From a virus (lineage: Duplodnaviria; Caudoviricetes): a stretch of 63,461 nucleotides of DNA. Both the position numbers and the translations under genes were made by a program. Shown here piece by piece: positions 8,239 to 61,886 of this stretch (position 1 is its first letter; each line of letters opens with the position of its first letter). The notes below the pieces were generated by a model. The model was not told the DNA's origin. It saw only the letters and a list, made by a program, of their open reading frames with translations, and made no database searches. Where the stretch lies: positions 1 through 63,461 of the IMG/VR virus record IMGVR_UViG_3300009503_000033. One strand, written 5' to 3'.

Positions 8239-8915
8239 AGGTAAAGAAAGGTAATGTAAAGCACGTCAGCAAGTCACTGGTTACACCAGCAGGGTCTATA
8301 CCATTGAGAGTATATAGTGGAGGTAGTTCCTATGGCATTCCTTTAACCACATCTACAGCTACATCATGGTCTGATGCTTCTAATACTAAGCCATCAGAAC
8401 CAGAGTTTCGAACTCCTATCAAGATACAGAAAGGTAGTGGCTATTATATAAAGTCTGAAGTGACATATACAGATGCTGGGCATGGTGATGTAGCTCATAA
8501 TGACGTAGCTCATTCCGACAGTCATAGTAACTGGAGCAACCATTCTAACTGGAGTAATGTTCCTTCTTGGTCAAACAGTGGAACTTCTTGGCATAATGGT
8601 GATTGGTATGGTTATCATTATGATTATTTCGAATCACGTAGGACGGAAAATCTGTACGATTATTACTACCATTACGACGGTACAGTGAAGTATGACACAG
8701 CTAAAAGTAGTTACTCATGGAGTGCTGGAAGCCATGCCGACTATTGGGACTATGGAAGTGGAACTTTGAGAAGTGGTTCGGCTCATGGAGATTATACGGA
8801 CCATTCCGATGCTAGTAGCCATAGCGATACCCATAGTGATGTAGCCCATTCTGATGTATTGCATTCCGATTCTGCTCATTCTAACTGGTACAATATCTAT
8901 ACAGAGCCAATCTAA
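8226..8915 (+). CDS. His/Trp/Tyr-x-Asp/Asn repeat protein; putative radical SAM-modified tail fibre tip
   Basis: About 23 [HWY]-x-[DN] triads in two arms flanking an aromatic-rich core; last gene of the tail operon; converges on the radical SAM operon. Confidence 0.7.
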   Translation: MPKLKVKKGNVKHVSKSLVTPAGSIPLRVYSGGSSYGIPLTTSTATSWSDASNTKPSEPEFRTPIKIQKGSGYYIKSEVTYTDAGHGDVAHNDVAHSDSHSNWSNHSNWSNVPSWSNSGTSWHNGDWYGYHYDYFESRRTENLYDYYYHYDGTVKYDTAKSSYSWSAGSHADYWDYGSGTLRSGSAHGDYTDHSDASSHSDTHSDVAHSDVLHSDSAHSNWYNIYTEPI

Positions 8916-8916
8916 T

Positions 8917-9747
8917 TTATGTAACTCGAATTATGTACTTGTCTTCTGTATAGCCTGTGGTGGTAACACCAAGGAATAGGTTGGTATTTACCTGTAGTAT
9001 GCCTCTGTAAGCATTCCATTCCAGTGGCATGGATAGAAGTTTAATTAGCCATAGGTAAGCTTTCCTATCTATGCTTCTCATTGTATCTTTCCAATACCAA
9101 GCCATATCCTTGGTACTATTACACTGAAAGCTACAAGGTAAGTGAGAAGTCAGTCTGATGCCAAAGTACCTAAGTAGCTGATTACACTCCACATAAGGCT
9201 TGATGGTTATATAATGGACATAACCCTCATCTTCCATAGGTTCTGATACTTCCTTAGTTCCTGTAGCTATAGCTGCTTCCCACATAGGGTCTATCTTACC
9301 TCTTTTCCATCTGTCATTAAAGGCTATAGTACAGCACTCTGGATAACCTAACATCCTACCTACTTCTAAATGTACTTTATTGGAGTCATTAGAGGCAATT
9401 TTAAATTTCATAGCCGTATCCTTATCTCTAGCCAGAACTCCATATATAAAACGGTCTTGGTTAGGTGCTGGAGCTATATGCCTATGACTGAATCCTTGAT
9501 ACTTAGCCGAAACAGCTATAGGAAGGAATACCAGTCCATCAACAGCTATTCTAGAGAGAATATCTAGTCCATTATCCATATCTACGTGTATAGTAGCCAC
9601 ATCTCTATAGCCATTCTTGACTGTTAGGTATTCTGCTTGGGTAAACATAGAACTAATCCTATTCAGCCTATCTTGCCATAGGTTCTCTTTTGATTCAGTC
9701 TTCCATATTGTCCTAGTGAATGGGACTATATCCAATGCTACTTTCAC
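8917..9747 (-). CDS. Cys-motif protein (DUF483-like), putative radical SAM partner
   Basis: GRMLGYPECC and SHLPCSFQC motifs; 4-nt overlap with the radical SAM stop. Confidence 0.6.
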   Translation of the reverse strand: MKVALDIVPFTRTIWKTESKENLWQDRLNRISSMFTQAEYLTVKNGYRDVATIHVDMDNGLDILSRIAVDGLVFLPIAVSAKYQGFSHRHIAPAPNQDRFIYGVLARDKDTAMKFKIASNDSNKVHLEVGRMLGYPECCTIAFNDRWKRGKIDPMWEAAIATGTKEVSEPMEDEGYVHYITIKPYVECNQLLRYFGIRLTSHLPCSFQCNSTKDMAWYWKDTMRSIDRKAYLWLIKLLSMPLEWNAYRGILQVNTNLFLGVTTTGYTEDKYIIRVT

Positions 9748-11798
9748 AGGTATCCATCCATGTGCCTACAGGCACCATCTAGGTGCTCTATGCTACCAGA
9801 TGGTCTAGGCTGTATGTCATTATATATCAACTCAAATAGAGCCTTCCATACTGGACAGAACTTATCCTTTCTTCTCCAATCAGAATTAATACCGTGATTG
9901 GGGCAACCTCCCAAGCATGATTGCCACCATCTACATCCATTACAGTCAGTTTCTAGTAGTAGCTTCTCTCTAATGTCTGGTCTATAGTCCTTTGCTCTAG
10001 GAAAGGGAGGCTCATTGTGATAGAGCTTGGTACAATTGGTGTCTACTCCATCATACCTGATGGCATGTATAGAAGGTGTATTGAATGGGTCACATCTACC
10101 AAAGATACACACCGCATCCTTACCTCTAAGCCTATCTGCTATGTCTATGAAGGGAGAATAATGAAGGTTATGCTCCTTACAGAAGTAGTAAAGGTCAGTA
10201 TAGAAGTCGATAGCCTCTTCTACAGTTAATTCCCATTCCCTATTAGGCATGTTGTTAGTAATACAAGCTAAGTTCATCCTACCATGGGTTATTCCTATGG
10301 ATTTTAAATCAAGTAGCCACTTCTTATATAATTCCCTATATTTTACGGCATTGAGCTTATGGATGACACTAATGATGCTTACTGGTATGCCCTCTTCACG
10401 TAGTCTATAAATATTATGTAACACAGATTTACCCATAGCTATACGTTTCTGCTTGCTACCCTTGCCTCTTAAGGCATTGCATACTGGTGGTCCATCTACC
10501 GATACAGATACGTGGGTATTATACTTCTTAAATGCCTTTATTTGCCAGTCCTTAATATTGTAAGCACCTGTCTGGATAGATGATTGCCCTCTCATTATAT
10601 AACCAAGTTCCAGTATCTTGTTGAATACCCTCTTAGGATAGGTAGTAGGCTCACCTCCATGCAATACAATATCATGTGCAGGGCATTCCCTTGCTAGTTT
10701 AGCTATAGTGTCTATGATTTTATGTAATTTAAATTTAGGTGGTGTACTATACCATCCAGACTGCTTTATGAAACAATTGTGAAGTATGTAACCTTCAGCA
10801 ATAAAGGTTTCGATGTCAGTCTGGAGATTATATACCGTTTTAATTCCTCCTTTCTTGATATCGATAATTGCTTCAGATTTTTTAGGTCTTAATCCATCAA
10901 ATGACATTTTCCTTAATATACTAGGCTGAGTTAAAGCAAAGAATCGTTGTTTTTCTTTCCTATCTCCTTTCAGACGAACGGTTGGACAATGAGCTTTATG
11001 TCTTTCTATGACTGATTCAAAGTTAAATAAAGAGAGATAATCGTGTATTCGTTCTAGAATTTCCTCGTTTGAATTGCTTATCCTTAAGATATTGTGGCTA
11101 AAACTACCTTCTGCATCAAAAATTCCAGCTAAATACCCTCTTTTCCATTCTCTATCACCTTCATTAGAAACAAGCTCAGAGAGAATCTTAAATGAAGAGT
11201 GGTCCTCTCTGTAAATGGCTCTCATATTCTGCTGGAACTGATACTGTTTAACGTTAATGCCTAATTCTTTTAGATAAGAAGTAGCTCGTTCTAGAGCTTG
11301 CTCGTCCTTTAGAGCAATTCTGAACCTATAATAAGTGAGGTTATCTTTATAGTTATATTGCCTTAGAAGACCATCTCCATCTATTAAACCTGCTAAATAA
11401 CCTTTCTTGTAACTCAATGTTTCTTCTTGATTGTCAATAGGAATGAATGGGCGTTTAATTTTATTCAGACTTCTACCTCTCAATTTACATGGTAAAACTC
11501 TCTCAATAGTTCTCCACCCTTTAGAAGTAAGATAAGGGTGGTCAGAAGTAAGCTCTATTGAGCCTTGTTCAGTAATTAACTTAAAAGTTAGAGCTTCTCT
11601 TGAGCTTAAAGCTATTACCTTTCCTCTAGTGAACTTCCATTTACCATCTATTTTCTTTACACCGATGATTTCTTCTCCCTCCTTCAATCTTTCTATGGGT
11701 TTCCATTGGTGATTGAGCATAAGTATTCTTGTGCCTGCTGGAAGACAGTACTTACATTCATAAGGGCATTGTAAGAAGCTTTCTGTAGCTATGGTCAT
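9744..11798 (-). CDS. Radical SAM/SPASM-domain enzyme containing an intein (about 360 aa spliced)
   Basis: CPYECKY|C motif rebuilt after splicing; LHGGEPT; VSVDGP; SPASM cysteines (CIFGRC, NC, CNGCRWWQSCLGGC, FC). Confidence 0.9.
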   Translation of the reverse strand: MTIATESFLQCPYECKYCLPAGTRILMLNHQWKPIERLKEGEEIIGVKKIDGKWKFTRGKVIALSSREALTFKLITEQGSIELTSDHPYLTSKGWRTIERVLPCKLRGRSLNKIKRPFIPIDNQEETLSYKKGYLAGLIDGDGLLRQYNYKDNLTYYRFRIALKDEQALERATSYLKELGINVKQYQFQQNMRAIYREDHSSFKILSELVSNEGDREWKRGYLAGIFDAEGSFSHNILRISNSNEEILERIHDYLSLFNFESVIERHKAHCPTVRLKGDRKEKQRFFALTQPSILRKMSFDGLRPKKSEAIIDIKKGGIKTVYNLQTDIETFIAEGYILHNCFIKQSGWYSTPPKFKLHKIIDTIAKLARECPAHDIVLHGGEPTTYPKRVFNKILELGYIMRGQSSIQTGAYNIKDWQIKAFKKYNTHVSVSVDGPPVCNALRGKGSKQKRIAMGKSVLHNIYRLREEGIPVSIISVIHKLNAVKYRELYKKWLLDLKSIGITHGRMNLACITNNMPNREWELTVEEAIDFYTDLYYFCKEHNLHYSPFIDIADRLRGKDAVCIFGRCDPFNTPSIHAIRYDGVDTNCTKLYHNEPPFPRAKDYRPDIREKLLLETDCNGCRWWQSCLGGCPNHGINSDWRRKDKFCPVWKALFELIYNDIQPRPSGSIEHLDGACRHMDGYL
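10776..11747 (-). mobile_element. Intein with LAGLIDADG endonuclease (324 aa) inside the CxxxCxxC motif
   Basis: CLPAGTRI start, HN|C end, LAGLIDGDG and LAGIFDAEG motifs. Confidence 0.95.
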
Positions 11799-13081
11799 TC
11801 TTCCATCTCCAAGGTAAGCACAGGTATGGATGATGGAGCTGGTTTCATCTCCTCTTGCATCAACATCAGTAGAGCGTCTACCATATCATCTCCCTTACCC
11901 CTATCTGGATTGTAGTAAGCCAGTTCCCTAAGCACTTCATCGTACCCTTCCCATATCTTTATCCTACCCTCTTCTACCACTACTCTTAATGTTTCTATCA
12001 TTCTGGGCTTATCCTTCCTAAAGGATACTGGCACTACAGGTATGCCCATGTTCTTCAGCCTCTGCCATTCAGAGATATTTTCTGAATCAACGAGCACCTT
12101 GATGGGTTTGTACCTTTCTACCAGTGCCTGTATCCTATTAAGTTGCTCAGGGTATGGTACTTTCTTCCAGAGTTGGGCATCCAGAATTATATAGCGATTA
12201 CCTACCTTTTGGGCTACTATTACTGCTGATGGGTGTACTGCCTGTCCCCAGTCTACCAGTATGTATGTAGAGGCATCATCTATAGGCTCTGGTTTTAATG
12301 GTGTCTTTAGTCTATGTATGTCCTCTAACCTGAATAGACTGGGGGTGTCATCCATGGCAAATATACCTTCCCACATAATTTTAAATTGGGCATTGGGTAG
12401 ATGCTGTCTAGCCCACTCTATTTCATCCTTACTTATCCAAGTACACTGGCTGGCATCCCAATGGAACCTCTTCCAGTTAGGATACTTGGTCTCATTGGCA
12501 TAGTACTCCCAGAATATACTATCATAATACGGTGTGCTGGATAGAATTACCTTGGAGTAGTTCATACCAGCTACTCTGGAAGGAGCATCCAGTATCAGGT
12601 TAGGGTCTTTCTTAGCTGCATCTGATGCTTCGTCTACTATAATCATGTTCACATGGGGACCATGGTATGCTGTAGGACTAGCTGCTAGAGCTACTATTTC
12701 AGAGCCATCTAGGAAGCTAGTATAGCTCTTAAGAGGTTCCTTCTTGAGTTTAGAAGTAAGGAACTCATGCTTATATAAGTACTTCGTAAAATATGAATAC
12801 AATACGTCAGATTGCCTCTGTGAACCAGCTAGTATCATCACTCTATATGGCTCATGTATTATGGTAGGTAGGACTGTAGTAGCCCATAGGGACATTAGAG
12901 CTAATGTCAATGTCTTACCTGTGGAACTGGCATTACTAACCAGAATTCGAGTTACATTAAAATCTATTAAGGTATCCAATAACTCCTTCTGAGGTGGTAT
13001 TGGTTTGTACCCAGTGATGTCTTCAAAGAACTTACTGGGCTTGGTTTGCCACAGTAATAGCCTAGCTGGATTTACTGGCAT
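11795..13081 (-). CDS. terL: Terminase large subunit
   Basis: Walker A-like SSTGKT, Walker B IIVDEA, LSSTP, RNase H-like nuclease (LVDWG, DDMVDAL). Confidence 0.9.
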   Translation of the reverse strand: MPVNPARLLLWQTKPSKFFEDITGYKPIPPQKELLDTLIDFNVTRILVSNASSTGKTLTLALMSLWATTVLPTIIHEPYRVMILAGSQRQSDVLYSYFTKYLYKHEFLTSKLKKEPLKSYTSFLDGSEIVALAASPTAYHGPHVNMIIVDEASDAAKKDPNLILDAPSRVAGMNYSKVILSSTPYYDSIFWEYYANETKYPNWKRFHWDASQCTWISKDEIEWARQHLPNAQFKIMWEGIFAMDDTPSLFRLEDIHRLKTPLKPEPIDDASTYILVDWGQAVHPSAVIVAQKVGNRYIILDAQLWKKVPYPEQLNRIQALVERYKPIKVLVDSENISEWQRLKNMGIPVVPVSFRKDKPRMIETLRVVVEEGRIKIWEGYDEVLRELAYYNPDRGKGDDMVDALLMLMQEEMKPAPSSIPVLTLEMEE

Positions 13082-13577
13082 CCTTATCCCACAGGTCAGC
13101 TATCTTTTCTATATACTCCACAGGTACTTCAGCCTTCTTCATTAGCTCAATCAGCTTGGTGTATTGTTCCTCTAAGGTCATAGTCTTGGTAGGCATCTTA
13201 GCCTGTATCCTTTCTATAGCCTCTAATGTCTTTCTACCTTCTGATATGGCTAATAATATCTTTGGTAGCTGTTCTGTATCCACACCATTCCTAAGTATGT
13301 TGTCCAGAGAGTCATTAATAATAGTCAAGTAGTTTGTAAGGTGGTCTAATGCCTCTGGTACTTCCAGTGTCTGGCTTTGTACCATTCCTTCCACTACTGG
13401 CACTGTTTGTTTCCTATCTTTCAGAAGCTTCCAGACAGTCATTTTGGATAGGTCATAACCAGCCTCCTTTAGATAGACCTGTACTTCAGATATGCTCTTG
13501 CCTTCAGAATAATACATTTCCAGAGCCTTAGCTTTAACATCAGGTCTGATGCTATCTATCTTACTTGGAGGAGGCAT
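13062..13577 (-). CDS. Putative terminase small subunit (N-terminal HTH)
   Basis: HTH-like N-terminus, helical body, overlaps the terL start. Confidence 0.65.
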   Translation of the reverse strand: MPPPSKIDSIRPDVKAKALEMYYSEGKSISEVQVYLKEAGYDLSKMTVWKLLKDRKQTVPVVEGMVQSQTLEVPEALDHLTNYLTIINDSLDNILRNGVDTEQLPKILLAISEGRKTLEAIERIQAKMPTKTMTLEEQYTKLIELMKKAEVPVEYIEKIADLWDKDASKSS

Positions 13578-13578
13578 A

Positions 13579-13764
13579 CTACTCTATCCAATATTGATAC
13601 AATATCCTTATTAAGCTTACTGTTTCTCCAAAGTTATATAGCCAGAACCTGAGCCATATGAATCTATACGGTACTGGTGGAAGAACACTAACGAACTTGA
13701 CCCATTTAAGGCTTTTGGATTTGAATTTTAACACCCAGGTAATTACTCTTGATAGGTGAGTCAC
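13579..13764 (-). CDS. Small hypothetical protein
   Basis: Abuts the terS start on the same strand; hydrophobic and basic. Confidence 0.35.
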   Translation of the reverse strand: MTHLSRVITWVLKFKSKSLKWVKFVSVLPPVPYRFIWLRFWLYNFGETVSLIRILYQYWIE

Positions 13765-13773
13765 TTATAAAAA

Positions 13774-13790
13774 GTGATTAGCTAATATTA
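13774..13790 (+). promoter_or_regulatory. 17-bp element GTGATTAGCTAATATTA, copy 1
   Basis: Identical to 14733-14749; both intergenic and followed by ATAT-rich sequence. Confidence 0.65.
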
Positions 13791-13870
13791 CGCTATATAA
13801 TAATGGAGAAGGATAGGATGGGGGTTATGGGACTTAGTCATTTTTTCTTTCTAAGTCCACCACTTTAACG

Positions 13871-13890
13871 AATTTGAATTACATAAAATT
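13871..13890. promoter_or_regulatory. Palindromic operator-like site AATTTGAATTACATAAAATT
   Basis: Exact reverse complement of 19061-19080; member of the genome-wide family. Confidence 0.7.
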
Positions 13891-13957
13891 GGGTTAACGC
13901 TATCTTTATATAGTCTCAAGTCGATATTTAACCAAACTAAAAAGGGGGGTGAAATAG

Positions 13958-14692
13958 ATGGAGGAGAAAACAGAACTTGAAGAGACAGAAGAGACTGAAA
14001 GAACAGAAGAGACTGAAAGAACAGAAGTAAAGACTATATACTGGACAGAACCAAGACAAGGTATAAAACATATTGTATCAGGAACTAATATCGTATCGCA
14101 AAAAATCGAGGAACTGGAACAATTAAAACAAGGTATCAGTGTTGAAGAAATCGATGTTAATACTATGGATTGGTTGGATGGTATACTATATACTATGGAC
14201 TTAACACCGTCGGAAGTTGCTTATTGCCATTGGCGACGAACACTAAGATTAACTCAAGGTAAAACACGGAAAATTGTTAAGGTCGGCGATGTCCAGATGA
14301 CCGTAGAAGAAAAAATACAGATACGAATGCCTAAGGGTGTGGTGGGTTGGGGTGTGCGGCCGCCAAACACTATAGTAACGGGTGACCCATTTCGGATTAA
14401 TGCGAAATGGGTGGACGATGTTGCAATGCTATTAACACCCAAAAACAAGATAAAAATTACATGGCAAAAATTTATAATGCACGTCATACGGCCGTACATT
14501 GTACACGCAAAAATAAAAAAGAAGAACGGTTATGACTACGGTCTGTACGCATACAGAATATTCAAACCAACCAAACACAACAAACGAGCCTTGATACATT
14601 TGCTTAATACAAAATTCGATTGGCTTGAGTTTCGAAGTTATAGAGACCTGGTGTACATACGCTTGAGAAAGTTCCGAAAACCAAAATTTTAA
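13958..14692 (+). CDS. Hypothetical early protein with N-terminal TEETER repeats
   Basis: Strong RBS (GGGGGGTGA), U-rich terminator after the stop, atypical base composition. Confidence 0.75.
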   Translation: MEEKTELEETEETERTEETERTEVKTIYWTEPRQGIKHIVSGTNIVSQKIEELEQLKQGISVEEIDVNTMDWLDGILYTMDLTPSEVAYCHWRRTLRLTQGKTRKIVKVGDVQMTVEEKIQIRMPKGVVGWGVRPPNTIVTGDPFRINAKWVDDVAMLLTPKNKIKITWQKFIMHVIRPYIVHAKIKKKNGYDYGLYAYRIFKPTKHNKRALIHLLNTKFDWLEFRSYRDLVYIRLRKFRKPKF

Positions 14693-14720
14693 ATTTTAAT
14701 TCTTTTCTTTTCTTTCTTAT
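14693..14720 (+). terminator. Archaeal-type oligo-T terminator
   Basis: TTTTAATTCTTTTCTTTTCTTTCTT directly after the stop codon. Confidence 0.55.
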
Positions 14721-14732
14721 TACTCATTAAAG

Positions 14733-14749
14733 GTGATTAGCTAATATTA
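14733..14749 (+). promoter_or_regulatory. 17-bp element GTGATTAGCTAATATTA, copy 2
   Basis: Identical to 13774-13790; upstream of ORF 14788. Confidence 0.65.
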
Positions 14750-14787
14750 GCTCATATATTATTGGATAAAGAAAGGGGGGGAAAGAG

Positions 14788-15060
14788 ATGGAAATGGATT
14801 TTGAGATAGTGACAATCGGCGAAGCTAGGCAAAAGTGGGAACTTAAGGATGAAGTAATTAGGGCGCTAGTGGTTGCGACGAAAACATTGACAGACAGACA
14901 AGGCATAGTAATAAAGCCAGAATACTATACTAGGCAACCACAAATAAAGGAACCAACCGCATTAGCACAAGCACTTAAAAGGAAGTATCCTAGCTTGGCT
15001 TTTGCCGTAAGAGATAAAAACGTGGTGGCAGTAAAGCCTAAAGAAAATAACGGCAGTTAA
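14788..15060 (+). CDS. Hypothetical protein
   Basis: ORF with G-rich RBS. Confidence 0.65.
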   Translation: MEMDFEIVTIGEARQKWELKDEVIRALVVATKTLTDRQGIVIKPEYYTRQPQIKEPTALAQALKRKYPSLAFAVRDKNVVAVKPKENNGS

Positions 15061-15075
15061 TAGGCTTAACTACAT

Positions 15076-15110
15076 CTTTCTTTTTTTATGTTTACTACAC
15101 CTTTTTTTAT
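15076..15110 (+). terminator. Oligo-T terminator
   Basis: Two T7 runs, each followed by ATGTT, after the stop codon. Confidence 0.5.
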
Positions 15111-15160
15111 GTTCATTATATGTAAAAGAAGAGAGAAGGAAAGGGGAGAGATGGGGAAAT

Positions 15161-15433
15161 ATGGCATTAAGCATGGTTGAGATTGAAGCAGACCGCATAA
15201 ATCAGCTGTTGGAGAACGTAGCATTAAGACTAGCAAGGAGATATGACTATTACGCTATAGATATATATGACAAGCATGGGTTTCTACTGGATACTATTGA
15301 AGCAGGACTAAGCAGAAAGCAAGCATTGAGCATTATTCATTCGATATACTATGTTCTGCTTAAAGAGCAAGCAAGAAAGAGAAGCATATGGACAAGGATT
15401 AAAGCATGCTTGAGGAGGTTAAAGCGTGTTTGA
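15161..15433 (+). CDS. Hypothetical protein
   Basis: ORF with purine-rich RBS. Confidence 0.6.
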   Translation: MALSMVEIEADRINQLLENVALRLARRYDYYAIDIYDKHGFLLDTIEAGLSRKQALSIIHSIYYVLLKEQARKRSIWTRIKACLRRLKRV

Positions 15434-18483: not shown

Positions 18484-18858
18484 ATGACGTATGATATTGA
18501 TGTAGCTATAGGCAGGAATATGGTACGAACACCATTCGGTATACATGGGCTATCATATGGAGCAAATACTGAGAAGCCTATCAATATTGAAAGGGTAATA
18601 TCGAAGGTAGTTAGAGGGTTCTGTCTTTCTGAAGGCTACATAGGTAGCGAAGACGTGTCATTGGTCTATACGCACTTAGCAAGTGCATATTTGAGAACTG
18701 TAAGAAGAATATTCAAGAGCAAAGATATATACTATGTCGGTAGTGATATGTCTTGGATAGCAGATGAAGATGTAAGAACCAATCTGGAAATAGTCCAGAG
18801 ATTGCTACTTCTACTGGGATATGCTGCTGTCTATGGATACAGTGTTATATTTAGATGA
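18484..18858 (+). CDS. Hypothetical protein
   Basis: ORF track; start uncertain. Confidence 0.5.
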   Translation: MTYDIDVAIGRNMVRTPFGIHGLSYGANTEKPINIERVISKVVRGFCLSEGYIGSEDVSLVYTHLASAYLRTVRRIFKSKDIYYVGSDMSWIADEDVRTNLEIVQRLLLLLGYAAVYGYSVIFR

Positions 18859-18880
18859 ATTTAAGTATCATAATTTGTTG

Positions 18881-19060: not shown

Positions 19061-19080
19061 AATTTTATGTAATTCAAATT
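19061..19080. promoter_or_regulatory. Palindromic operator-like site AATTTTATGTAATTCAAATT
   Basis: Exact inverted copy of 13871-13890; directly before the ATPase RBS. Confidence 0.7.
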
Positions 19081-19091
19081 GGTGATATATA

Positions 19092-20345
19092 ATGACAGAT
19101 GGTTACGATGCTTTGATAGTGAACACTCCTCAAGAATTAAAGAAGGTACTGGTTCTGGCTATGAAGAAGGTCAGGTACCAGCTTGAAGTAAAGCATAATA
19201 CCAAGCAGAAGGGCATATTTGTTTGGGGAGAGATGGGCATAGGCAAGGATGAAATAATGGATGAAGCTACTTATGAGGTCTATGGTAATGATGCCTTCAT
19301 TATAGACTTAAGGCTGGCTGGTAGGGAGCCAGTGGATGTTTTAGGCATACCAGACCTAAAGTACCTGATAAGATGGAAGGAGAACAAGGATAGTGACTAT
19401 ACCAAGCAGCAATACTTGAATAAGGACTTAGCTGTAGAACTGTTAAGGCAACTTGGAGCTGATAGGGTAAGCATAGGAGCAGGAAGGACAGTATTCAATC
19501 CAACCTTTCCAGACCTTGCAGGTAGGAAAGGTGTAATTAAGTTTGGTGAGCTGAATTTAGGTGCTGTAGCTACCCAGCATGCTGCTTACAGCTGGATATA
19601 TGATAGGTTCGTAGGTGATACCCACCTACCAGATACAGTTCAGATACTGGCTAATGGCAATACAAGGTCAAGCAGAGCAGGTGTGAGGGAAGTACCAGCT
19701 CCATTGCTCAATAGGTTCAGGCATATAGAAATCAGACCGCCTAAAAGGGAATATGACAACCTTGTAGAATGGGTAGAGAGCTGGACTAACTATATGATAG
19801 CAAGGGGAGGAGACCCTAGAGTAATAGCCTACATCAATACCTACCCCGATGACCTATACCTATACGATGAGAAGAAGGTAGAAAGAGCATTTGCTACACC
19901 ACGTACTTGGACATTCCTAAGCGATGACATAAGTGGAATAGAGGACTTGGATACTTTAGAGCAACTATCAGCTATGCATATAGGCACTGGTTTAGCTCAT
20001 AAGTTTGCCTCTTTTGTAAGGTTTAGTCAGGAGTTTGACCTTGATAAGCTGTATAAGTACCCAGAAAAGACTATGGGTGACTTTGACAAGTGGGAAGTAA
20101 GCAAGAAATATGCCTATGTTCTGGCATACAGTAATGACCTGCTAAGCAAGTTCCATAAGGCTACTACCGATAAGGAGAAGGATAACATAGCTAAATTATA
20201 TATTGACATTCTGGCTCTAACTCCAGTGGAATTTAAAATTCTGGGTATTAAATTAGGTTCTACCTCTAAAGAACTTAGGCAGAAGTGGATTAGCAGTCAA
20301 TACTTTACTAGGAAGCTTGGTGATGTATTGAAGTATATAGGATGA
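19092..20345 (+). CDS. MoxR-like AAA+ ATPase
   Basis: WGEMGIGK Walker A, IDLRL, ELN, ANGN, PLLNRF, FATPRTW motifs. Confidence 0.85.
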   Translation: MTDGYDALIVNTPQELKKVLVLAMKKVRYQLEVKHNTKQKGIFVWGEMGIGKDEIMDEATYEVYGNDAFIIDLRLAGREPVDVLGIPDLKYLIRWKENKDSDYTKQQYLNKDLAVELLRQLGADRVSIGAGRTVFNPTFPDLAGRKGVIKFGELNLGAVATQHAAYSWIYDRFVGDTHLPDTVQILANGNTRSSRAGVREVPAPLLNRFRHIEIRPPKREYDNLVEWVESWTNYMIARGGDPRVIAYINTYPDDLYLYDEKKVERAFATPRTWTFLSDDISGIEDLDTLEQLSAMHIGTGLAHKFASFVRFSQEFDLDKLYKYPEKTMGDFDKWEVSKKYAYVLAYSNDLLSKFHKATTDKEKDNIAKLYIDILALTPVEFKILGIKLGSTSKELRQKWISSQYFTRKLGDVLKYIG

Positions 20346-20349
20346 TAGG

Positions 20350-22255: not shown

Positions 22256-22424
22256 CAAGAAGGAAGGTAAAGGCTTTAAGTGTACCAAATGCTCTAAAGA
22301 ACTATTCCATTCCTGTTATATGGTTGTCTATTCTTTGATAGATGAAACAGGGAGAGCCTATGAACCATCCAGAATAGTAGCTATCCTATGCGAGAAGTGC
22401 TGGAAGAGCAGTAATTTAATGTAA
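22233..22424 (+). CDS. Zn-finger protein
   Basis: CTKC...CEKC. Confidence 0.55.
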   Translation: MVLLMKGNKKEGKGFKCTKCSKELFHSCYMVVYSLIDETGRAYEPSRIVAILCEKCWKSSNLM

Positions 22425-53741: not shown

Positions 53742-53760
53742 TATTTATGTTACATAAATT
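53742..53760. promoter_or_regulatory. Palindromic site TATTTATGTTACATAAATT next to a TTATATA box
   Basis: Near-perfect family member upstream of ORF 53773. Confidence 0.7.
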
Positions 53761-53772
53761 GGGTGTGATATT

Positions 53773-53997
53773 ATGTCTGAAGATAGTGAACTGACTTTGA
53801 TGCCTTGTCCCTTCTGGAATAACTATACTGTATGCCCTCTGAGGAAGAGGATGTATGGACTACCACCACCAGAGAGGTTTAAGCCTGTAGCAGGGCTAAA
53901 GTTCCCTATTAGATGTAAGTTTGCTACAATGTATAGATGTGTATGGGTAAAGGACTACTATATGTATTTAGAACCTATAGAGGAGGTGGAAGAATGA
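53773..53997 (+). CDS. Small Cys-rich protein
   Basis: Four Cys; ATGA-coupled to the next gene. Confidence 0.6.
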   Translation: MSEDSELTLMPCPFWNNYTVCPLRKRMYGLPPPERFKPVAGLKFPIRCKFATMYRCVWVKDYYMYLEPIEEVEE

Positions 53998-56984
53998 CTT
54001 ATATATATGAGGAAGATATAGCCCTAGAAAGCCTAGCTGAAGTAGAGCCAGAGCTAGTAGAGACTCTACAGAAGAAGATAGCAGGTAGGTATAATGTCTA
54101 TCCACCTAATAATAAACCAGAACCTTTTGTCATACAAAGGCATGAAATTGGTGATTCAAACCACTTTGACTTTAGGTTTAAGGTAAATGGGTATTTGATT
54201 GGTTGGTCAGTGGTTGGGTTCAGTAAGGACAATCCAGCTACCATAGAGACCTTGCTGGCTAACATAGGTAAGGGCTTTAGAGCTGAAACTAAAGCCTCGC
54301 AACCTTGTATTGCTCCAGACACTCTAGTCTTTACTAGGGATGGACTAAAGGAAGCAGGGAGAATAACTATGAACGACTTGTTGCTAGGGAAAGATGGAGT
54401 ATTCCATAGAGTTGTTCAAATAGACAGAGGCATTAAGGATAAGGGTTATATAATTAAGACTAGTTATGGAGTAGAACAAAAGGTTACTCAACATCATCCT
54501 TACTTGGTAGTTATTAAAGCCTTCTGTCCTTATCATGGCTACTTTGATGTAAAAAGAACCTTAGAAAGCACTAGCCATTGTGAGTATTGTAGATTAGATA
54601 AAGTTCTTTACCCAATAATTGAATGGAAGGAGGCTAAAGACTTAGAGGTAAGGGACATAGTGCTATTTCCAAAGGAGATTAGAGAGTATTGGAAGCGTCC
54701 AATAAGGCAGGTCTCACCTCAATATGGAAGGTTACTTGGGTTCTTTATAGGAGATGGAACTAGGTGGAATAAGAATGGGGTCAGGCTACTCTTCAATGCT
54801 TTGAAAGAGGAATCTAAAGCTGAATATTATAATGCCATAGTCAGGGAACTAAGTGGTAATACAGGTTCCATAAGAAGGGAGAAGAACGTTCTGATACTTT
54901 CATTTACTAATGAAACTTCTAGATGCTTGCTGAAGGATGGATATGAAAATGAGACCAAAAGCATTAAATTAGAGTTCCTAGGGTATCCAAAAGGGTTCAG
55001 AAAAGAGTTGTTGTTTGGATTGATTGATTCAGATGGCTATTGGATAAGTCAAGACTGTTTCTATTTTGCAACAAGCAATCCTAGGGTAGCTGAAGGTTTC
55101 TGGTTACTTTGCTCTTCTTTAGGCATTCCATGCTCTATGAGGTACCGAGAGAATACTTCTAAACTTGTATCAAGAACAAAGAAGAAGTTTGAATTTATGG
55201 GTTACTTGAACAAGGAGCATAACGAAATACTTGACCTTGGCTATTACTGGGGCTTTAGAGTTATCGACAAGAAAGACTTGAACTGTCCAGAGTATATAAA
55301 CATAGTTACTAATGACCATACTATATTAGTACCATTTGCTATTACTCACAATACCATCTGGCTTAATGTTGAGGGTCAGGTCAAGCCTGGTGAGGTAGGG
55401 GCTGGAGTGGAAAAGCCTGGCAAGTTCACCATACTAACAGGTACTAAGAAGTACAAGGATGCTAGAGTGATATTTGGGTGTCAAAAACCCTATTTTCATG
55501 AGTACTTCCTTAAGGATGGGGTGTACTTTAAGGATTGGACTAGGATAGTGTTCAGACAGATTAAACAGGAGAAGCTAGAACCAGAAACTAAACGTCCTAC
55601 AGGTAAAACAGAGCTATTCTGGAGGTTTATGATACCCAAGGACCAGAAACCATATGCTCTGGCTAGAGGTATGAAGGAAGGATGGTACCCTCCAGAAGGC
55701 ATAATTCCATTTCCATATGACTGGGCTAAAAAGAACTATCCAGAGGATGTTGCTAAGTGGGAAGAATATATAAAGCAGGCTACTAAGGAAACTAAGTTAA
55801 GCAAGGCTAAGTTCTGTATTGTTGAGTTCAGGTACAAAGGTCCTAAGCATATCAGAGATGTATGGAGGAGGGAATGGCATTTGCTTATAGATGATGGTAA
55901 AGAGAAGGTTATGGACTTTGTAACCACCGAACATCCTATCTATATAATGCCTCTGGCTTATGTATATAATGGTAGGATAGATAAGAAATGGTTTGGCTAT
56001 GAAGGTAACTTGAAGCCACTGGAGCTTTGGAATCCTAACAAGGAGTTAAATGGCATAGTGGAAGTACTGATAGAAGGAGATATGGATATAGATAGCAAGA
56101 TAGTGAATGATAAGGAAGTATATATTATAGACATAGATAGAGGTATTATGAAGGGTAAGTATGCTATGGCTCAAGAGGAGGAAGATAGTCCCTTCTATAT
56201 ATTTAATGAACTAACTAAGCTGGCTCTAGCTGCCGATGCTGTATGGGTATATGATAAGCACACTATAGAAGGAGTTCCCCACTGGGACTTAAGGTTCAGG
56301 CTTAACATAGAAGGTGAATGGGAATCTGTGTTACATGAATTTAGTGGTATGGATAAGCCACTCCATGAAGCAGGTATTGAGGAACCTGTAGAAGTGATAG
56401 CTAAGATATGTAAAGACCTTAGCTGGATAGACCCTAACTTTAAGGAAGGTAGACGTAAGGTAGGGGGTATATGGACAGAAGTAGAGAGAATAGACCAAGG
56501 TAAGGCTATAATATATAATGCTACAGATGATTTCTGGTCATTTAACTTGGATGGAGAAATCCTTAGTGGTTATATAATAGCCAAAAGGACTGATGGAGGT
56601 TGGGTAATTATGAAGAGCAGGCTACCTTCACCTAAGCTCTCTAAGGAAGGAACAGGCAATCCAGTTACTGGGGACTACTATAAGGAATTTAAAATTGAAC
56701 AAAAGAAGGGATGGGACTACTTTATTGTTCACATCTATGACTCCAGAGCCTTTACCAGAGCTGAACCTGCTGAAATGGTAAAGGAATACCTACCTGATTT
56801 AAAATTACCAGAGGGTGTTGATGTTAGAATAGGTCTATATCCAGTGGTAGGAGCATTACACCATGTAAGGGTCATGAATGTAAAGTTCCCATCTACATGG
56901 ACAGTAGCTGAAGCTGTAGCTTGGATTAAGAAGAATAACCTTCATAAGTGGGGTAGAGAACGCATAGTTAAGAAGCAACAGTAA
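53994..56984 (+). CDS. Multidomain protein with repeated LigD-type 3'-phosphoesterase (PE)-like domains and an intein
   Basis: FVIQRH...HFDFR..NG.L.GWSV and WL.VEG..KPGE.GAG; later copy VYDKH...HWDLR; start at ATG 53994 with GGAGGTG RBS. Confidence 0.75.
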   Translation: MTYIYEEDIALESLAEVEPELVETLQKKIAGRYNVYPPNNKPEPFVIQRHEIGDSNHFDFRFKVNGYLIGWSVVGFSKDNPATIETLLANIGKGFRAETKASQPCIAPDTLVFTRDGLKEAGRITMNDLLLGKDGVFHRVVQIDRGIKDKGYIIKTSYGVEQKVTQHHPYLVVIKAFCPYHGYFDVKRTLESTSHCEYCRLDKVLYPIIEWKEAKDLEVRDIVLFPKEIREYWKRPIRQVSPQYGRLLGFFIGDGTRWNKNGVRLLFNALKEESKAEYYNAIVRELSGNTGSIRREKNVLILSFTNETSRCLLKDGYENETKSIKLEFLGYPKGFRKELLFGLIDSDGYWISQDCFYFATSNPRVAEGFWLLCSSLGIPCSMRYRENTSKLVSRTKKKFEFMGYLNKEHNEILDLGYYWGFRVIDKKDLNCPEYINIVTNDHTILVPFAITHNTIWLNVEGQVKPGEVGAGVEKPGKFTILTGTKKYKDARVIFGCQKPYFHEYFLKDGVYFKDWTRIVFRQIKQEKLEPETKRPTGKTELFWRFMIPKDQKPYALARGMKEGWYPPEGIIPFPYDWAKKNYPEDVAKWEEYIKQATKETKLSKAKFCIVEFRYKGPKHIRDVWRREWHLLIDDGKEKVMDFVTTEHPIYIMPLAYVYNGRIDKKWFGYEGNLKPLELWNPNKELNGIVEVLIEGDMDIDSKIVNDKEVYIIDIDRGIMKGKYAMAQEEEDSPFYIFNELTKLALAADAVWVYDKHTIEGVPHWDLRFRLNIEGEWESVLHEFSGMDKPLHEAGIEEPVEVIAKICKDLSWIDPNFKEGRRKVGGIWTEVERIDQGKAIIYNATDDFWSFNLDGEILSGYIIAKRTDGGWVIMKSRLPSPKLSKEGTGNPVTGDYYKEFKIEQKKGWDYFIVHIYDSRAFTRAEPAEMVKEYLPDLKLPEGVDVRIGLYPVVGALHHVRVMNVKFPSTWTVAEAVAWIKKNNLHKWGRERIVKKQQ
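54306..55352 (+). mobile_element. Intein (349 aa, LAGLIDADG, with a Cys/His insert) in the PE domain
   Basis: CIAPDT start, HN|T end, GFFIGDG and GLIDSDG motifs. Confidence 0.92.
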
Positions 56985-57014
56985 GTCTTAAATGAATTAA
57001 TGTAACATTAAATT
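56983..57014 (+). promoter_or_regulatory. TATA-like AAGTCTTAAAT followed by palindrome AATTAATGTAACATTAAATT
   Basis: Fills the whole gap before the protease gene. Confidence 0.65.
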
Positions 57015-58160
57015 GTGATAGCTATGACTGAAGCCATTAAGGAATTGATAGTTGAGTTAGAAGGTATTAAAGAAGAGAATGAGCTGTTAAAGGCACAGTT
57101 ACGGTCTATGACATCCACTTTGGCATCTGACTTCATAGTACTGTCAGAAGCACCCAAAATTGTCAAAGGCATTGCTATAGCTGAAGGTACTTGGAATGGT
57201 GATTACTACCCAGCAGAGGCACTTAGGGAAATACCCAATGTGGGTTCCATACCAGTGTTAGTGGAGCATGGTGATAGTGAAGAGTTTGGAACTAAGGCTG
57301 TTGGGTTAGTTAAAGAATGGGAATACATACCACTGATTAATGCTGTAGCTTACCAAGCAGAAATTACTGATGACAGGGCTTGGCAACTGATTAAAGAGGG
57401 TAAGCTTACTGGCATCAGTCTTCAGTCCTTTGTAGCTAAGGGTAATGGAGGACATAGGGTATTATATATGAAACCATTTGAAGCCAGTCTGACCTCCAAT
57501 CCAGCTGTAAAATATGCCTATGTAGCCTTTAGCAAAATGTATTTAAATGAGAAAGGTTCAATAAAGAGTGATATTATGACCGAAGTAGGTAAGGAAGAAG
57601 TTAAGACAGAAGCTGTTAGTGCTACAGCTCCTAATGCTACAGTTGAGGTAAAGGCTGACACTGCTACAGCACCTACATCAGCACCTAAGGAGTATGAGAT
57701 GGTACAGCTTGAAGTAAAGGACAATGAAGTGATGGTTATAGATGTGATGCCTGAGGAGGAAGCATTGAAGAAGAAGAGACCAGTAGCTAAGGTACCAGCA
57801 GGAACGTACTATTACTATGGGTCCTATGGATACCCACCGTACTACTATGGTTATCCATATGGATATGCCTATGGCTATCCATCTGGGTATGGCTATCCTA
57901 CCCCTAAGAAGAGGAAGCTAACTGATGACTACGAGGATGCTACTGCCATATTTGATGCTATCAAGAAGCTAGAGGACAAGCTTGCTGCTGTGGAGAATAA
58001 GATAAGTGAAATGACAGCTAGTCTGACCAAGGCACCTGAGGCTCCTAAGGCACCTGAGGTTGCTGAGGCTCCAAAGGCACCTGAAGCAGCTAAGCCTGAC
58101 TTGGGTAAGCTCACCCCTGCTGAGTTGATAGTACTAGAACAGAGGAAGAAAGGTTTATGA
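57015..58160 (+). CDS. Prohead protease with scaffold-like C-terminal extension
   Basis: KGIAI.EG.WNG..Y, VEH, G.LTGIS, EASL...PA; YGYP and KAPEA low-complexity tail; directly before the capsid gene. Confidence 0.8.
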   Translation: MIAMTEAIKELIVELEGIKEENELLKAQLRSMTSTLASDFIVLSEAPKIVKGIAIAEGTWNGDYYPAEALREIPNVGSIPVLVEHGDSEEFGTKAVGLVKEWEYIPLINAVAYQAEITDDRAWQLIKEGKLTGISLQSFVAKGNGGHRVLYMKPFEASLTSNPAVKYAYVAFSKMYLNEKGSIKSDIMTEVGKEEVKTEAVSATAPNATVEVKADTATAPTSAPKEYEMVQLEVKDNEVMVIDVMPEEEALKKKRPVAKVPAGTYYYYGSYGYPPYYYGYPYGYAYGYPSGYGYPTPKKRKLTDDYEDATAIFDAIKKLEDKLAAVENKISEMTASLTKAPEAPKAPEVAEAPKAPEAAKPDLGKLTPAELIVLEQRKKGL

Positions 58161-58405
58161 CTGACCTAGATGGTCTTCTAAAGGGCTTAAAGCAGCTTGA
58201 AGTAGAGATACAGAGGCTTAAGGAAGAGAATACTAAGCTAAGGAAGATGCTTGGACAGCCTGTATCATCTATATCCTCTTCTGAACCTTCCAGTGAGCCA
58301 TCAAGAGTAATTAATGGTGCTATTGCTCTAATAGCACTGCTAAAGTCTGGTCAGTGGGATTCATCAGTAAGCCTAAGAGAGCTGATGGAAAGGAAGAGAA
58401 TTTAA
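58157..58405 (+). CDS. Small coiled-coil scaffold-like protein
   Basis: LKEEN.KL coil resembling the protease N-terminus. Confidence 0.55.
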   Translation: MTDLDGLLKGLKQLEVEIQRLKEENTKLRKMLGQPVSSISSSEPSSEPSRVINGAIALIALLKSGQWDSSVSLRELMERKRI

Positions 58406-58454
58406 GTTACATAAAATTAACTGTATACCACAAGCTTTTTAAGTAACATAAATT
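58399..58454. promoter_or_regulatory. Two palindromic sites (58399-58418, 58436-58454) and the capsid promoter AAGCTTTTTAAG
   Basis: AATTTAAGTTACATAAAATT and TTTTTAAGTAACATAAATT. Confidence 0.7.
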
Positions 58455-58463: not shown

Positions 58464-59330
58464 ATGATAAGCATGCAGGAAGAAATAGCTAAGTTAGTAG
58501 AGTTACCAGATGTTACAGCCGTAACTCCTAAGGCAATACTTGATGTCATAGAGGCATCCAGAAGGAAGAGAGCTACTGGGTTACAGCTCTTAAGGCACAA
58601 TGATATCCTTAAGAGGACCAAGGCTAGGTCAGCTAATGTACCCAAGAGAGGCATACTTACTGCTGTAGAGGTCAGTGAAGGAGCTGACATTAGTGAGCAA
58701 AGCATTCCTGATGTCACTTATCAGACTACAACGGTTAGTGCTGTAAAGATAGGTACTTACTTCAAGATTACCAAGGAAGCAATTGATGCTACTGAAATTG
58801 ATGTCATTAATGACTTGCTGGAGGATGCTGGAGCAGCTATAGCTGACAAGGAAGATGACCTTATATATGATGCTATACTGTCAGCACCTACCAGCAATAT
58901 TCAAGCCAGTGCTAATGCAGGCAAAATTGTCTTTGCTGACATAGTCAAGGCTAAGTCTAAGGTTGAGGCAAGCAATTTTGAGCCTGACACTGTGGTTCTT
59001 AGTCCAGCCAGAGCTGATGACTTGCTTGTTGATGCTGCTGCTATTGCTAGGTTTGTCGATAAGTCTGAACTACCTGAAAATGAGCAGCTGGTTAGACAGC
59101 TTGGTAGGCTTGCTGGGCTTGATGTCATAGTGTCCAATGCTGTACCAGACACTACAGTGTTGGTGCTTGACAGAAAAGCCCTTGGCTGGTACTTACCAAA
59201 GAGAGATGTGGATGTGAAGAGGGATGAATCAATAACAACTGACTCTATAGAGTTTGCCGTGTTCAAGGAGTTTGGAGTAGGAGTTACACAGGCTGATGCA
59301 ATATGCTTCCTGACGGTTGCTCCAGCCTAA
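58464..59330 (+). CDS. Major capsid protein (HK97 fold)
   Basis: V.EGADI, K.G.YFKIT.E.I, A..IA.KED, G.LAGL.VIVS patterns. Confidence 0.9.
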   Translation: MISMQEEIAKLVELPDVTAVTPKAILDVIEASRRKRATGLQLLRHNDILKRTKARSANVPKRGILTAVEVSEGADISEQSIPDVTYQTTTVSAVKIGTYFKITKEAIDATEIDVINDLLEDAGAAIADKEDDLIYDAILSAPTSNIQASANAGKIVFADIVKAKSKVEASNFEPDTVVLSPARADDLLVDAAAIARFVDKSELPENEQLVRQLGRLAGLDVIVSNAVPDTTVLVLDRKALGWYLPKRDVDVKRDESITTDSIEFAVFKEFGVGVTQADAICFLTVAPA

Positions 59331-60966: not shown

Positions 60967-61422
60967 ATGAAGATAGAGTCATTGAATAGGTTGATAGTAA
61001 ACGTGCTAAGGAGCAATGTACCAGACCCTCTTAATAGAGGCATTACTTGGATTACATATGGTTACACACAGGATACAATAAGGTACCCATCAATAGCTGT
61101 ATTCCAGAGCAGTGCTAGGGGAGATATTCTAGCTATAGGTGATAAGACCAATGTAGTAGAGGCTCTTTACCTGATAGAGATAGTTACCAATAAGGATGCT
61201 GAAGCCACTATAGGTGGCAGTAGATATTCTGGCTATAAGCTGACCAGTTACCTTACCGATGCTGTAACTAAGGCAATAATGAACCAGAGGGACTATGCTA
61301 GAACACAGGGTATTGAGGACTGGAATATAGTTAGAATAGAAACTATGGGATATGACCCTGATAGGGAAGAGTATAAGCAGAGGGTATGGCTATCCTGTAT
61401 TGGGGTGCTGGAACCAACATAA
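60967..61422 (+). CDS. Tail terminator protein
   Basis: YPSIAV motif; directly before the tail tube gene. Confidence 0.55.
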   Translation: MKIESLNRLIVNVLRSNVPDPLNRGITWITYGYTQDTIRYPSIAVFQSSARGDILAIGDKTNVVEALYLIEIVTNKDAEATIGGSRYSGYKLTSYLTDAVTKAIMNQRDYARTQGIEDWNIVRIETMGYDPDREEYKQRVWLSCIGVLEPT

Positions 61423-61463
61423 GACTTAAATAGTGGGCTGGTTAATTAATTGTTGGTGTTAGG

Positions 61464-61886
61464 ATGCCCACCTATTATCGTGGTAAGGATGCCACCTTGT
61501 ATGTAGTGGTTGGTGGAACAGAGACTAGGATAGGTTATGCTCAGTCAGCCAGTGTAGAGATTAACCCCAATCCAGAAAGGCTCTTTGAGGTAGGTTCACC
61601 CTTGGCAGTAGGCATAGAGATGGGCAATGTGGAAATATCTGGCAGTATCTCTAGGATATGGATGGACAATTTTATGTTACAAAAATTAGGTATGACAACG
61701 CCAGCACTGTCTGCCTTTGACTTAGTGTTTAAGATAGGGACTGAGGAAGATGCTCCAGCCATCTCTCTTACTGGATGTGTGGTTAGTACTGGTTCTATAG
61801 ACATACCTCAGGATGGATGGATAATGGGAGACATAGACTTCATGGCTAAAAGCTATACCCTGTTAGGCAGAACAACTCAACCATAG
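61464..61886 (+). CDS. Tail tube (major tail) protein
   Basis: IGYAQS, EVGS, G..EISGS beta pattern; AAGACTTAAATA promoter-like site upstream. Confidence 0.75.
   Translation: MPTYYRGKDATLYVVVGGTETRIGYAQSASVEINPNPERLFEVGSPLAVGIEMGNVEISGSISRIWMDNFMLQKLGMTTPALSAFDLVFKIGTEEDAPAISLTGCVVSTGSIDIPQDGWIMGDIDFMAKSYTLLGRTTQP

Follow-up and report, generated by a model that had tools for sequence, protein, structure and literature searches.

A family of near-palindromic 20-bp sites, proposed to be operator-like, recurs across the genome of an uncultivated head-tailed archaeal virus

Stoperators of the Cluster A mycobacteriophages are asymmetric 13-mers that are bound by a monomer and are found chiefly in short gaps between genes, in an orientation that matches transcription and is essential to their function, as outlined in parts of one study (PMC9283540). 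Here, we describe a family of 19–20-bp near-palindromic sites, designated 20-mers, in IMGVR_UViG_3300009503_000033, the genome of an uncultivated head-tailed virus of a thermophilic archaeon. The window that we analyzed is the entire record, a single contig of 63,461 bp with 40.2% G+C. The operator/stoperator system of the Cluster A mycobacteriophages appears to be the closest functional analogue of this family, which resembles it in scale. Under the L5 gp71-type immunity repressor of these phages, a single short motif is present in more than 20 copies on a tailed-virus genome of ~50–60 kb, at promoters and elsewhere, and the role proposed for it is to block initiation and elongation throughout the genome (PMC9283540, in the sections concerned). 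The 20-mers likewise exceed 20 copies, with 29 sites, 27 of them robust, distributed across 8.9–61.7 kb of the window. Unlike the asymmetric 13-mers, they are near-palindromes with no orientation bias: where a site overlaps genes of one direction only (21 sites), its stronger half runs with the gene in 12 cases and against it in 9. Whereas stoperators are mainly intergenic, 11 of the 29 sites stand at gene boundaries and 18 lie wholly within open reading frames (ORFs) of at least 80 amino acids. The host also differs from that of the mycobacteriophages in being an archaeon with TBP/TFB-type transcription machinery. An initial annotation of this DNA, made from the sequence alone, had likened the sites to stoperators; the analogy breaks down over asymmetry and orientation, two features that define stoperators. 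Near-palindromy and the lack of an orientation bias therefore place the family outside the stoperators.

Viruses and plasmids of archaea provide a second comparison. SvtR, AvtR, F55, and the AbrB-like C68 of pSSVx are small dimeric proteins that bind imperfect inverted repeats or short repeats near the transcription factor B recognition element (BRE), the TATA box, or the transcription start site (TSS) of promoters; F55 and C68 overlap the BRE and TSS, and sites of high and low affinity differ in their closeness to the consensus (PMC5569661, as far as its coverage of these factors extends). The consensus of the 20-mers, AATTTaAGTTACATAAAATT, shares with the operators of these proteins an imperfect repeat of ~11–22 bp with a strong and a weaker half (PMC5569661, same coverage). 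As to placement relative to promoters, seven of the 29 20-mers end within 60 nt 5' of a start codon, four abut the TATA-like word TTATATA, and 18 are intragenic. In the same parts of that source, each archaeal viral factor has a handful of sites at a few promoters (PMC5569661). The family described here differs in its ~27–29 sites, two thirds of them intragenic, and in its occurrence in a head-tailed virus.

Repeated palindromes are also found in other settings. The Streptomyces phage phiC31 carries a ~17-bp palindromic operator in well over a dozen places that is read by one repressor family; these repeats are intergenic, and phiC31 is an integrating temperate phage of a bacterium. Arrays of parS bound by ParB, and the sites of archaeal SegB and AspA, are short palindromes that are often intragenic, occur in several to a few dozen copies per replicon, and are used in either orientation. 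Unlike replicons with such arrays, the window yielded no ParA, ParB, SegAB, or AspA-type family among the 70 ORFs that were scanned with Pfam, and the 20-mers are enriched at promoter-like positions and not clustered around a recognizable origin. A full-text literature search found no paper that combines the terms "stoperator" and "archaeal virus", and a broader search for palindromic binding sites of archaeal viruses gave nothing comparable among the titles and abstracts listed.

The count of the sites is far above chance. The 19-nt consensus of the initial annotation, AATTTATGTNACATAAATT, has 16 matches with at most three mismatches in the window, compared with a mean of 0.12 and a largest value of 2 in 100 dinucleotide shuffles. 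By our own arithmetic, a Poisson bound on 16 versus 0.12 remains negligible after multiplication by the 262,144 possible 9-nt half-sites. A position weight matrix iterated from the half-site TTACATAAAAT converged on 29 sites that score 13.2–29.4 bits and define AATTTaAGTTACATAAAATT, which carries ~21 bits of information. At a threshold of at least 13 bits, these 29 sites compare with 0.3 in dinucleotide shuffles (n = 100); at 17 bits or more, 28 sites remain and the 100 shuffles contain none. Because the matrix was trained on the same sites, leave-one-out scoring was used. Twenty-seven of the 29 sites stay at or above 13.9 bits, site 22167 drops to 12.3 bits, and site 23109 drops to 7.8 bits and is for that reason considered doubtful. 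These counts exclude chance or base composition as the explanation and establish that the palindrome family reported in the initial annotation is real. All 21 of the full sites listed there were recovered, each within 1 nt, and eight sites were added to them (10410, 18857, 22167, 22507, 23109, 37390, 48055, and 56323).

The sites also survive comparison with a codon-preserving control. In 200 shuffles that permuted synonymous codons within each gene and left non-ORF DNA unchanged, 10.6 20-mers remained (sd 1.2, maximum 14), well below the 28 observed, and the survivors were essentially the untouched boundary sites. Within genes, 18 20-mers were seen and ~1 was expected after synonymous-codon shuffling; the DNA sequence itself is therefore maintained. 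The synonymous sites of this genome thus carry a second layer of information. The intragenic 20-mers fall in several reading frames and in both orientations and are lost on codon shuffling, so the signal resides in DNA and not in protein; a peptide-level repeat was ruled out on these grounds. The 29 sites are listed below with their matrix and leave-one-out scores in bits; no strand is assigned to them.

8913–8932: over the two stop codons of convergent genes 8226–8915 (plus) and 8917–9747 (minus); 23.8/21.4
10410–10429: in the radical-SAM gene 9744–11798 (minus), extein part; 21.7/19.3
10716–10735: in the radical-SAM gene 9744–11798 (minus); 24.6/22.9
12944–12963: in the large terminase gene 11795–13081 (minus); 20.2/16.9
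13871–13890: in the main divergent intergenic region, followed after 15 nt by a TTTATATA box and after 68 nt by the start at 13958; 28.5/27.1, second-best
18857–18876: over the stop codon of 18484–18858; 18.3/14.2
19061–19080: ends 12 nt before the ATPase gene 19092–20345, with TTATATA 5 nt away on the minus strand; 27.3/25.9
22167–22186: weaker; in 21890–22255, overlaps TTATATA, 47 nt before a small ORF at 22233; 17.1/12.3
22413–22432: over the start codon of the DUF932-like gene 22427–23194; 17.4/14.3
22507–22526: in 22427–23194; 19.0/13.9
23109–23128: doubtful; in 22427–23194, between two 11-mers (described below); 13.2/7.8
23807–23826: in the P-loop ATPase gene 23191–23904; 24.8/23.0
26137–26156: between small zinc-ribbon ORFs, 149 nt before the DNA methylase gene 26305–27588; 26.5/24.8
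29055–29074: in the RNase H gene 28668–29141, 21 nt after TTATATA and 70 nt before the next start; 21.6/15.4
32090–32109: in the NrdD-like gene 31442–32416, 300 nt before the AbrB/MazE-like gene at 32409; 21.9/19.6
33049–33068: in 32631–33566; 24.0/21.8
36525–36544: in the XPF/ERCC4 gene 36020–36679, overlaps the 11-mer at 36524; 22.8/21.0
37390–37409: in 36684–37640; 20.7/17.9
38137–38156: in the family-B DNA polymerase gene, 0 mismatches, with TTATATA 6 nt away on the minus strand; 25.2/23.2
40834–40853: in 40079–41188; 22.6/20.7
45070–45089: intergenic, ends 34 nt 5' of the 1766-aa ligase/metallo-beta-lactamase gene; 24.0/22.1
45757–45776: in 45123–50423; 24.3/20.9
48055–48074: strong half only; in the first intein of 45123–50423, at residue ~978 in the Hint domain; 22.0/15.8
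53742–53761: intergenic, left edge overlaps TTATATA, ends 11 nt before the ATG at 53773, 1 mismatch; 24.4/22.3
56323–56342: in 53937–56984; 26.8/25.1
56995–57014: intergenic, directly before the GTG at 57015 and 9 nt before the ATG at 57024; 21.4/18.9
58399–58418: best-scoring; over the stop codon of 58157–58405, 46 nt before the capsid start; 29.4/28.2
58435–58454: ends 10 nt before the ATG of the capsid gene 58464–59330, in tandem with 58399; 21.9/19.3
61668–61687: in the tail gene 61464–61886; 24.0/21.7

The 20-mer consists of AATTT/AAATT arms around a GTWAC center and is sharply bounded, with no informative column over 45 nt on each flank. Its abrupt edges indicate that it does not belong to a longer repeat or to a mobile element, and the absence of conserved flanks ruled out a mobile element or miniature inverted-repeat transposable element. 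A G-rich flank that was seen by eye after some sites proved weak and non-palindromic and was dropped. The description of the sites as palindromes, put forward in the initial annotation, holds for roughly a quarter of them, which are good palindromes of the ATGTWACAT type and include the sole perfect copy (38138–38156, 19 nt). Most sites instead combine one strong half (RTTACATAAAAT) with a purine-rich trinucleotide and a second half reduced to the distal AATTT. The two halves match the consensus independently, without compensating each other.

The arms of the 20-mer recur at a second spacing. Exact AATTT-N(k)-AAATT is enriched at two spacings only, k = 1 (14 copies) and k = 10 (5 copies); the other spacings with k of 0–25 have 0–1 copies, and shuffles give ~0.1–0.3. 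The form with k = 1 is a distinct palindrome, AATTTWAAATT, designated the 11-mer. Its 14 exact copies compare with 0.2 in dinucleotide shuffles and 1.7 in codon shuffles, and no other 10- or 11-mer of the genome is as over-represented. Its mismatch profile is unusually sharp, with 14 exact copies, only 11 with one mismatch, and 40 with two. Twelve of the 14 lie inside ORFs of at least 80 amino acids, in whichever frames avoid a stop codon. The half-sites of the 20-bp palindrome that the initial annotation placed at 23011, 23151, and 30649 turned out to be copies of the 11-mer. The exact 11-mers are as follows.

9397–9407: in 8917–9747 (minus)
12377–12387: in the terminase gene
14685–14695: over the stop codon of 13958–14692, with a T-rich stretch after it
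20230–20240: in 19092–20345
20704–20714: in 20350–21567
23014–23024: in 22427–23194, the former half-site 23011
23155–23165: in 22427–23194, the former half-site 23151
30652–30662: in the 29-nt divergent intergenic region 30634–30662, the former half-site 30649
36524–36534: in the XPF gene, overlapping a 20-bp site
41482–41492: in the glycosyltransferase gene
43999–44009: in the candidate winged-helix gene 43809–44111
44245–44255: in 44108–45055
50561–50571: in 50407–50721
56686–56696: in 53937–56984

The 20-mers are distributed unevenly with respect to genes. The 11 of 29 that are not wholly inside an ORF compare with 9.2% of random windows (p = 3e-5), and the enrichment at gene boundaries is given as five-fold. 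The seven that end no more than 60 nt 5' of a start codon compare with 8% at random (p = 0.007), and half of the intragenic sites (9 of 18) stand 63–302 nt before the next gene start. Sites 58399 and 58435 together take up most of the 58-nt gap 5' of the capsid gene. TTATATA is the usual TATA-like word of this genome, and four of the 29 20-mers begin between 2 nt before and 6 nt after its end, compared with 0.62 at random (P = 0.003). Copies at or over TATA boxes had been noted before, and 20-mers do lie on or beside TATA-like elements and the starts of several genes, that of the capsid included. Copies reported within the polB, terL, RNase H, and XPF genes were confirmed in all four. The copy assigned to a tail tube gene lies in a gene of the PHROGs tail category. 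The statement that the inteins contain no copies was incorrect, as 48055–48074 falls within an intein of the ligase gene.

TTATATA has a distribution of its own. It occurs in 94 copies on both strands, compared with 54 ± 6 after synonymous-codon shuffling, and most copies are intragenic and on either strand. TATA-like words are thus over-represented in coding DNA in their own right.

Along the genome, the spacing of the 20-mers is irregular and indistinguishable from random. Five 20-mers and two 11-mers fall within 1.7 kb in the densest patch, at 22.1–23.8 kb (P = 0.025), which adjoins the P-loop ATPase gene. The tail module is free of both motifs for 10.7 kb, from 61,688 through the join of the contig ends to 8,912 (P = 0.019 for the two families together and P = 0.17 for the 20-mers alone).

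The 20-mer is thus a short, bounded, near-symmetric DNA word that is enriched at gene boundaries and lacks a stable RNA structure, and the simplest reading of such a word is a binding site for one protein. On a finely balanced judgment, we favor the view that the 20-mers are operator-like sites of one global regulator with two-fold symmetry, probably a repressor. We infer the binding of a protein, its dimeric state (from the symmetry of the sites only), its action by repression or activation, and its identity; this regulatory interpretation of a statistically overwhelming observation is sensible but unproven. The binder would probably be encoded by the virus and would act as a global regulator of viral transcription. 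At boundary sites, it would sit on the TATA-like element or just 3' of it, between -31 and -12 relative to the start codon. A position over a TATA word or at -31 to -12 is typical of archaeal repressors that block the recruitment of TBP/TFB or of the polymerase. Protein bound there would deny the host initiation machinery access to several promoters, namely those of the methylase operon, of the ATPase, DUF932-like, and ligase genes, and of the capsid gene and its upstream neighbor. The 18 intragenic copies may be roadblocks to elongation or may provide nucleation or reservoir sites for the same protein. Site 8913–8932 extends over the stop codons of a convergent gene pair, a place where a promoter would not be expected; protein bound there could stop opposing transcription from running through. 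A role in roadblocking or nucleation suits the convergent-junction and intragenic copies better than a role as promoters. Sites of archaeal-virus transcription factors are, in the coverage cited above, imperfect inverted repeats at promoters (PMC5569661).

A 9-bp inverted repeat, CTATACAGA ... TCTGTATAG, with its arms ~47 nt apart, was seen by eye at 8895–8952, where it brackets the convergent-junction site.

Several observations weigh against this view of the 20-mers as operators. Most are intragenic, and some lie up to 4.6 kb from any gene start; the family therefore does not consist of classical operators. One copy (48055–48074) sits in a mobile intein. Promoter positions are guesses based on start codons and TATA-like words. 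The companion 11-mer is sharper than the usual sites of a regulator and may have a different kind of reader. A near-identical strain has a T>C change at 56336, a core position of site 56323; it is the one change within a site among the 40 variants listed of 1,082. Searches with the capsid protein in genome_contigs, metagenome_contigs, and GenBank phages found no usable relative. Finally, no protein is linked to the motif, and no candidate binder reaches a curated family threshold.

The initial annotation had named winged-helix, AbrB, and small terminase proteins as candidate binders. The 100-aa product of 43809–44111 has a helix-strand-helix-helix-wing-helix order in a low-confidence AlphaFold model (pLDDT 66); Foldseek gave no match to the model at E ≤ 0.001, and the weak top rows were winged-helix regulators. 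The 66-aa product of 32409–32609 matches MazE/SpoVT-AbrB with E = 1.2e-4, below the Pfam cut-off, and the supposed small terminase 13062–13577 has no family match at all. The 90-aa product of 14788–15060 shows a faint helix-turn-helix (HTH) match, and several zinc-ribbon ORFs lie at 25443–26308. Searches of PDB sequences with three candidate binders returned nothing at E < 0.1. The family scans detected no ribbon-helix-helix gene, and neither Pfam nor PHROGs scans found an immunity repressor family of the stoperator type (HTH plus stoperator domain). For the two genes of the densest cluster, ESM Atlas indicated the DUF932 and AAA/STAND families; both were rejected as binders, as neither family reads DNA sites.

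Related sequences were sought in order to assess the conservation of the sites. In IMG/VR, the capsid protein gave no usable relative (two loci at 29% identity with a single-protein query and none with a profile query), and the protein database contains one capsid homologue at 63% identity (P0002). A terminase query returned only strain L154, which is 99.5% identical over window positions 1798–15317. The 66 differences of L154 all lie outside the sites; as just 0.65 were expected within them, the comparison is without power. Beyond 15317, L154, a JGI contig, continues with unrelated sequence at its own positions 1–711, which marks a mosaic boundary in the early region between the strains. The distant relative L001 lacks a palindrome family comparable to this one. 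An exact motif pattern matched 31 loci in IMG/VR, once in each and with no enrichment in any. In genome_contigs, single matches in unrelated AT-rich bacteria appeared among the matches listed, which revealed no host and did not exclude one.

Four DNA sequencing runs were examined, and relatives of 90–95% identity were present in two. Contigs of such a relative in one hot-spring run skip 47957–48935, 49224–50198, and 54306–55373, ~1 kb each. These contigs represent intein-free alleles of the ligase gene, which has two inteins, and of the gene for a 1015-aa protein at 53937–56984. The intein of the latter has no Pfam match.

An unlikely alternative to regulation by a bound repressor is that the motif itself serves as a promoter element for a single temporal class of genes or as an upstream activator site. 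The TTTATGTA / TTTAAGTA half would then be a variant TATA box for the host TBP/TFB, possibly with a viral factor, and the intragenic copies would be internal or antisense promoters. An archaeal core promoter has an AT-rich box of 8 bp ~26 nt 5' of the transcription start and takes its direction from the adjacent BRE; in leaderless or short-leader archaeal mRNAs, the TATA box is expected ~29 to 21 nt before the ATG. The T-rich half occupies about this interval before at least four starts (19092, 53773, 57024, and 58464), and TATA-box geometry fits four to five start-proximal sites when position is judged from start codons. No other AT-rich box is visible 5' of 19092 or of the capsid gene, and the nine intragenic sites 63–302 nt before a gene start would suit internal promoters. 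However, the stronger half has no consistent direction at the start-proximal sites, and an ordinary TTATATA stands beside several sites and is not replaced by them. One site lies between convergent genes, and several are in the middle of genes, 0.7–4.6 kb from the next start. A Shine-Dalgarno-like GGTGAT after two sites also argues for leadered mRNAs there.

It is distinctly improbable, in our judgment, that the 20-mers are architectural or segregation sites: a centromere-like array, or sites for condensation or tethering at which a protein binds, bridges, or spreads with a secondary effect on transcription. Their number, their dispersal at random-like spacing, their mostly intragenic location, and their lack of an orientation bias are what such a function would predict, as is the position of the densest cluster next to the P-loop ATPase gene. 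The virus also encodes an Alba-like protein, and no integrase family was found among the 70 ORFs scanned with Pfam. The partition families named above were, however, equally absent from these ORFs, and the ATPase 23191–23904 resembles AAA/STAND/FtsK-HerA proteins, not ParA. An architectural function would moreover leave unexplained why the sites are enriched at gene boundaries, at start codons, and beside TATA-like words.

A bolder form of the operator reading, which we regard as rather far-fetched, brings the 11-mers under the same regulator. One viral protein with two-fold symmetry would read the AATTT/AAATT arms at N1 (the 14 11-mers) and at N10 (the 20-mers), approximately one helical turn further apart, in ~40 places in the replication and head modules, and would spare the 10.7-kb tail module. 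Such a protein would shut down most of the genome simultaneously, as an archaeal-virus counterpart of stoperator immunity, and could support a non-integrated carrier state in a hot-spring archaeon. The episomal carrier state, which the initial annotation had also raised, is pure conjecture.

Of lower probability still, and in our view highly unlikely, is that the motifs are recognition sequences of an enzyme that acts on DNA, as a nicking, modification, recombination, or packaging signal. Some tailed phages have interrupted genomes with site-specific nicks. The gene products of the virus include an HNH endonuclease-like protein, two methyltransferases, a glycosyltransferase, and two radical-SAM enzymes, and the 11-mer occurs almost only in exact copies, as would be expected for an enzyme. 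A relative's contig (run X4) stops matching at 45080, the center of site 45070–45089, and is one of 24 loose ends listed, a coincidence compatible with chance. Against recognition by an enzyme, the 20-mer is degenerate, with one perfect copy only; contig breaks in near-identical runs do not coincide with the sites; and the enrichment at promoter-like positions would have no explanation.

An RNA-level motif (a translational operator, processing site, or terminator hairpin) is extremely unlikely: several copies do lie 1–34 nt from start codons or over stop codons, and the perfect copy can fold into an 8-bp AU stem of -4.3 kcal/mol, but four of five folded sites reach only 0 to -3.3 kcal/mol at 37 °C, no different from shuffles, such stems would melt in the hot springs from which the virus originates, and the stronger half takes the direction of the mRNA 12 times and the opposite one 9 times, with no compensatory changes between the halves.

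How archaeal head-tailed viruses regulate their genes has hardly been studied. A single motif with ~27–29 selected copies, two thirds of them intragenic, would be the first sign of one-factor regulation on a genome-wide scale in such a virus. The 20-mer, with its perfect copy at 38138–38156 and the natural tandem pair 5' of the capsid gene, also provides a sharply defined DNA probe for binding in vitro, which can be used even though the virus is uncultivated.

The genome that carries the sites is complete. Its first and last 123 bp are identical (1–123 and 63339–63461), forming a perfect direct terminal repeat, and a tail ORF of ~820 amino acids that begins at 62443 stays in frame across this repeat. 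The terminal repeat and the long ORF through the join together show that the genome is complete and either circularly closed or terminally redundant. The sequence is present in hot-spring metagenome runs. Genes were identified with Pfam and PHROGs, and those of the main modules are the following.

11795–13081 (minus): large terminase
42314–43549: portal
43550–43834: Alba-like protein (chromatin-type)
45123–50423: 1766-aa metallo-beta-lactamase/ATP-ligase protein with two inteins
58464–59330: HK97-type major capsid protein
61464 through the join to ~8915: tail genes

The same scans identified a replication and repair set of archaeal type that comprises a family-B polymerase, RadA with an intein, XPF, RNase H, and the 1766-aa protein. 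The NrdD-like gene is a fragment. No Rfam families and no tRNA genes were found in the window.

Two features of the early and middle regions stand apart from the 20-mers. The exact 17-bp word GTGATTAGCTAATATTA, which surrounds the 10-bp palindrome ATTAGCTAAT, occurs in two copies only (13774–13790 and 14733–14749), each within a 60-nt repeat (77% identical). These repeats lie in the promoter regions of a small minus-strand gene that starts at 13764 and of the gene at 14788. The word looks like a second, classical early operator, and its presence in two early promoter regions suggests that the virus probably has more than one regulator-site pair. At 19092–21567, an ATPase gene (PHROG 1297) is followed by a gene for a DUF2201 metallopeptidase/VWA protein. 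Such a MoxR-VWA-like pair is unusual for a virus, and a 20-bp site lies 12 nt 5' of its first gene.

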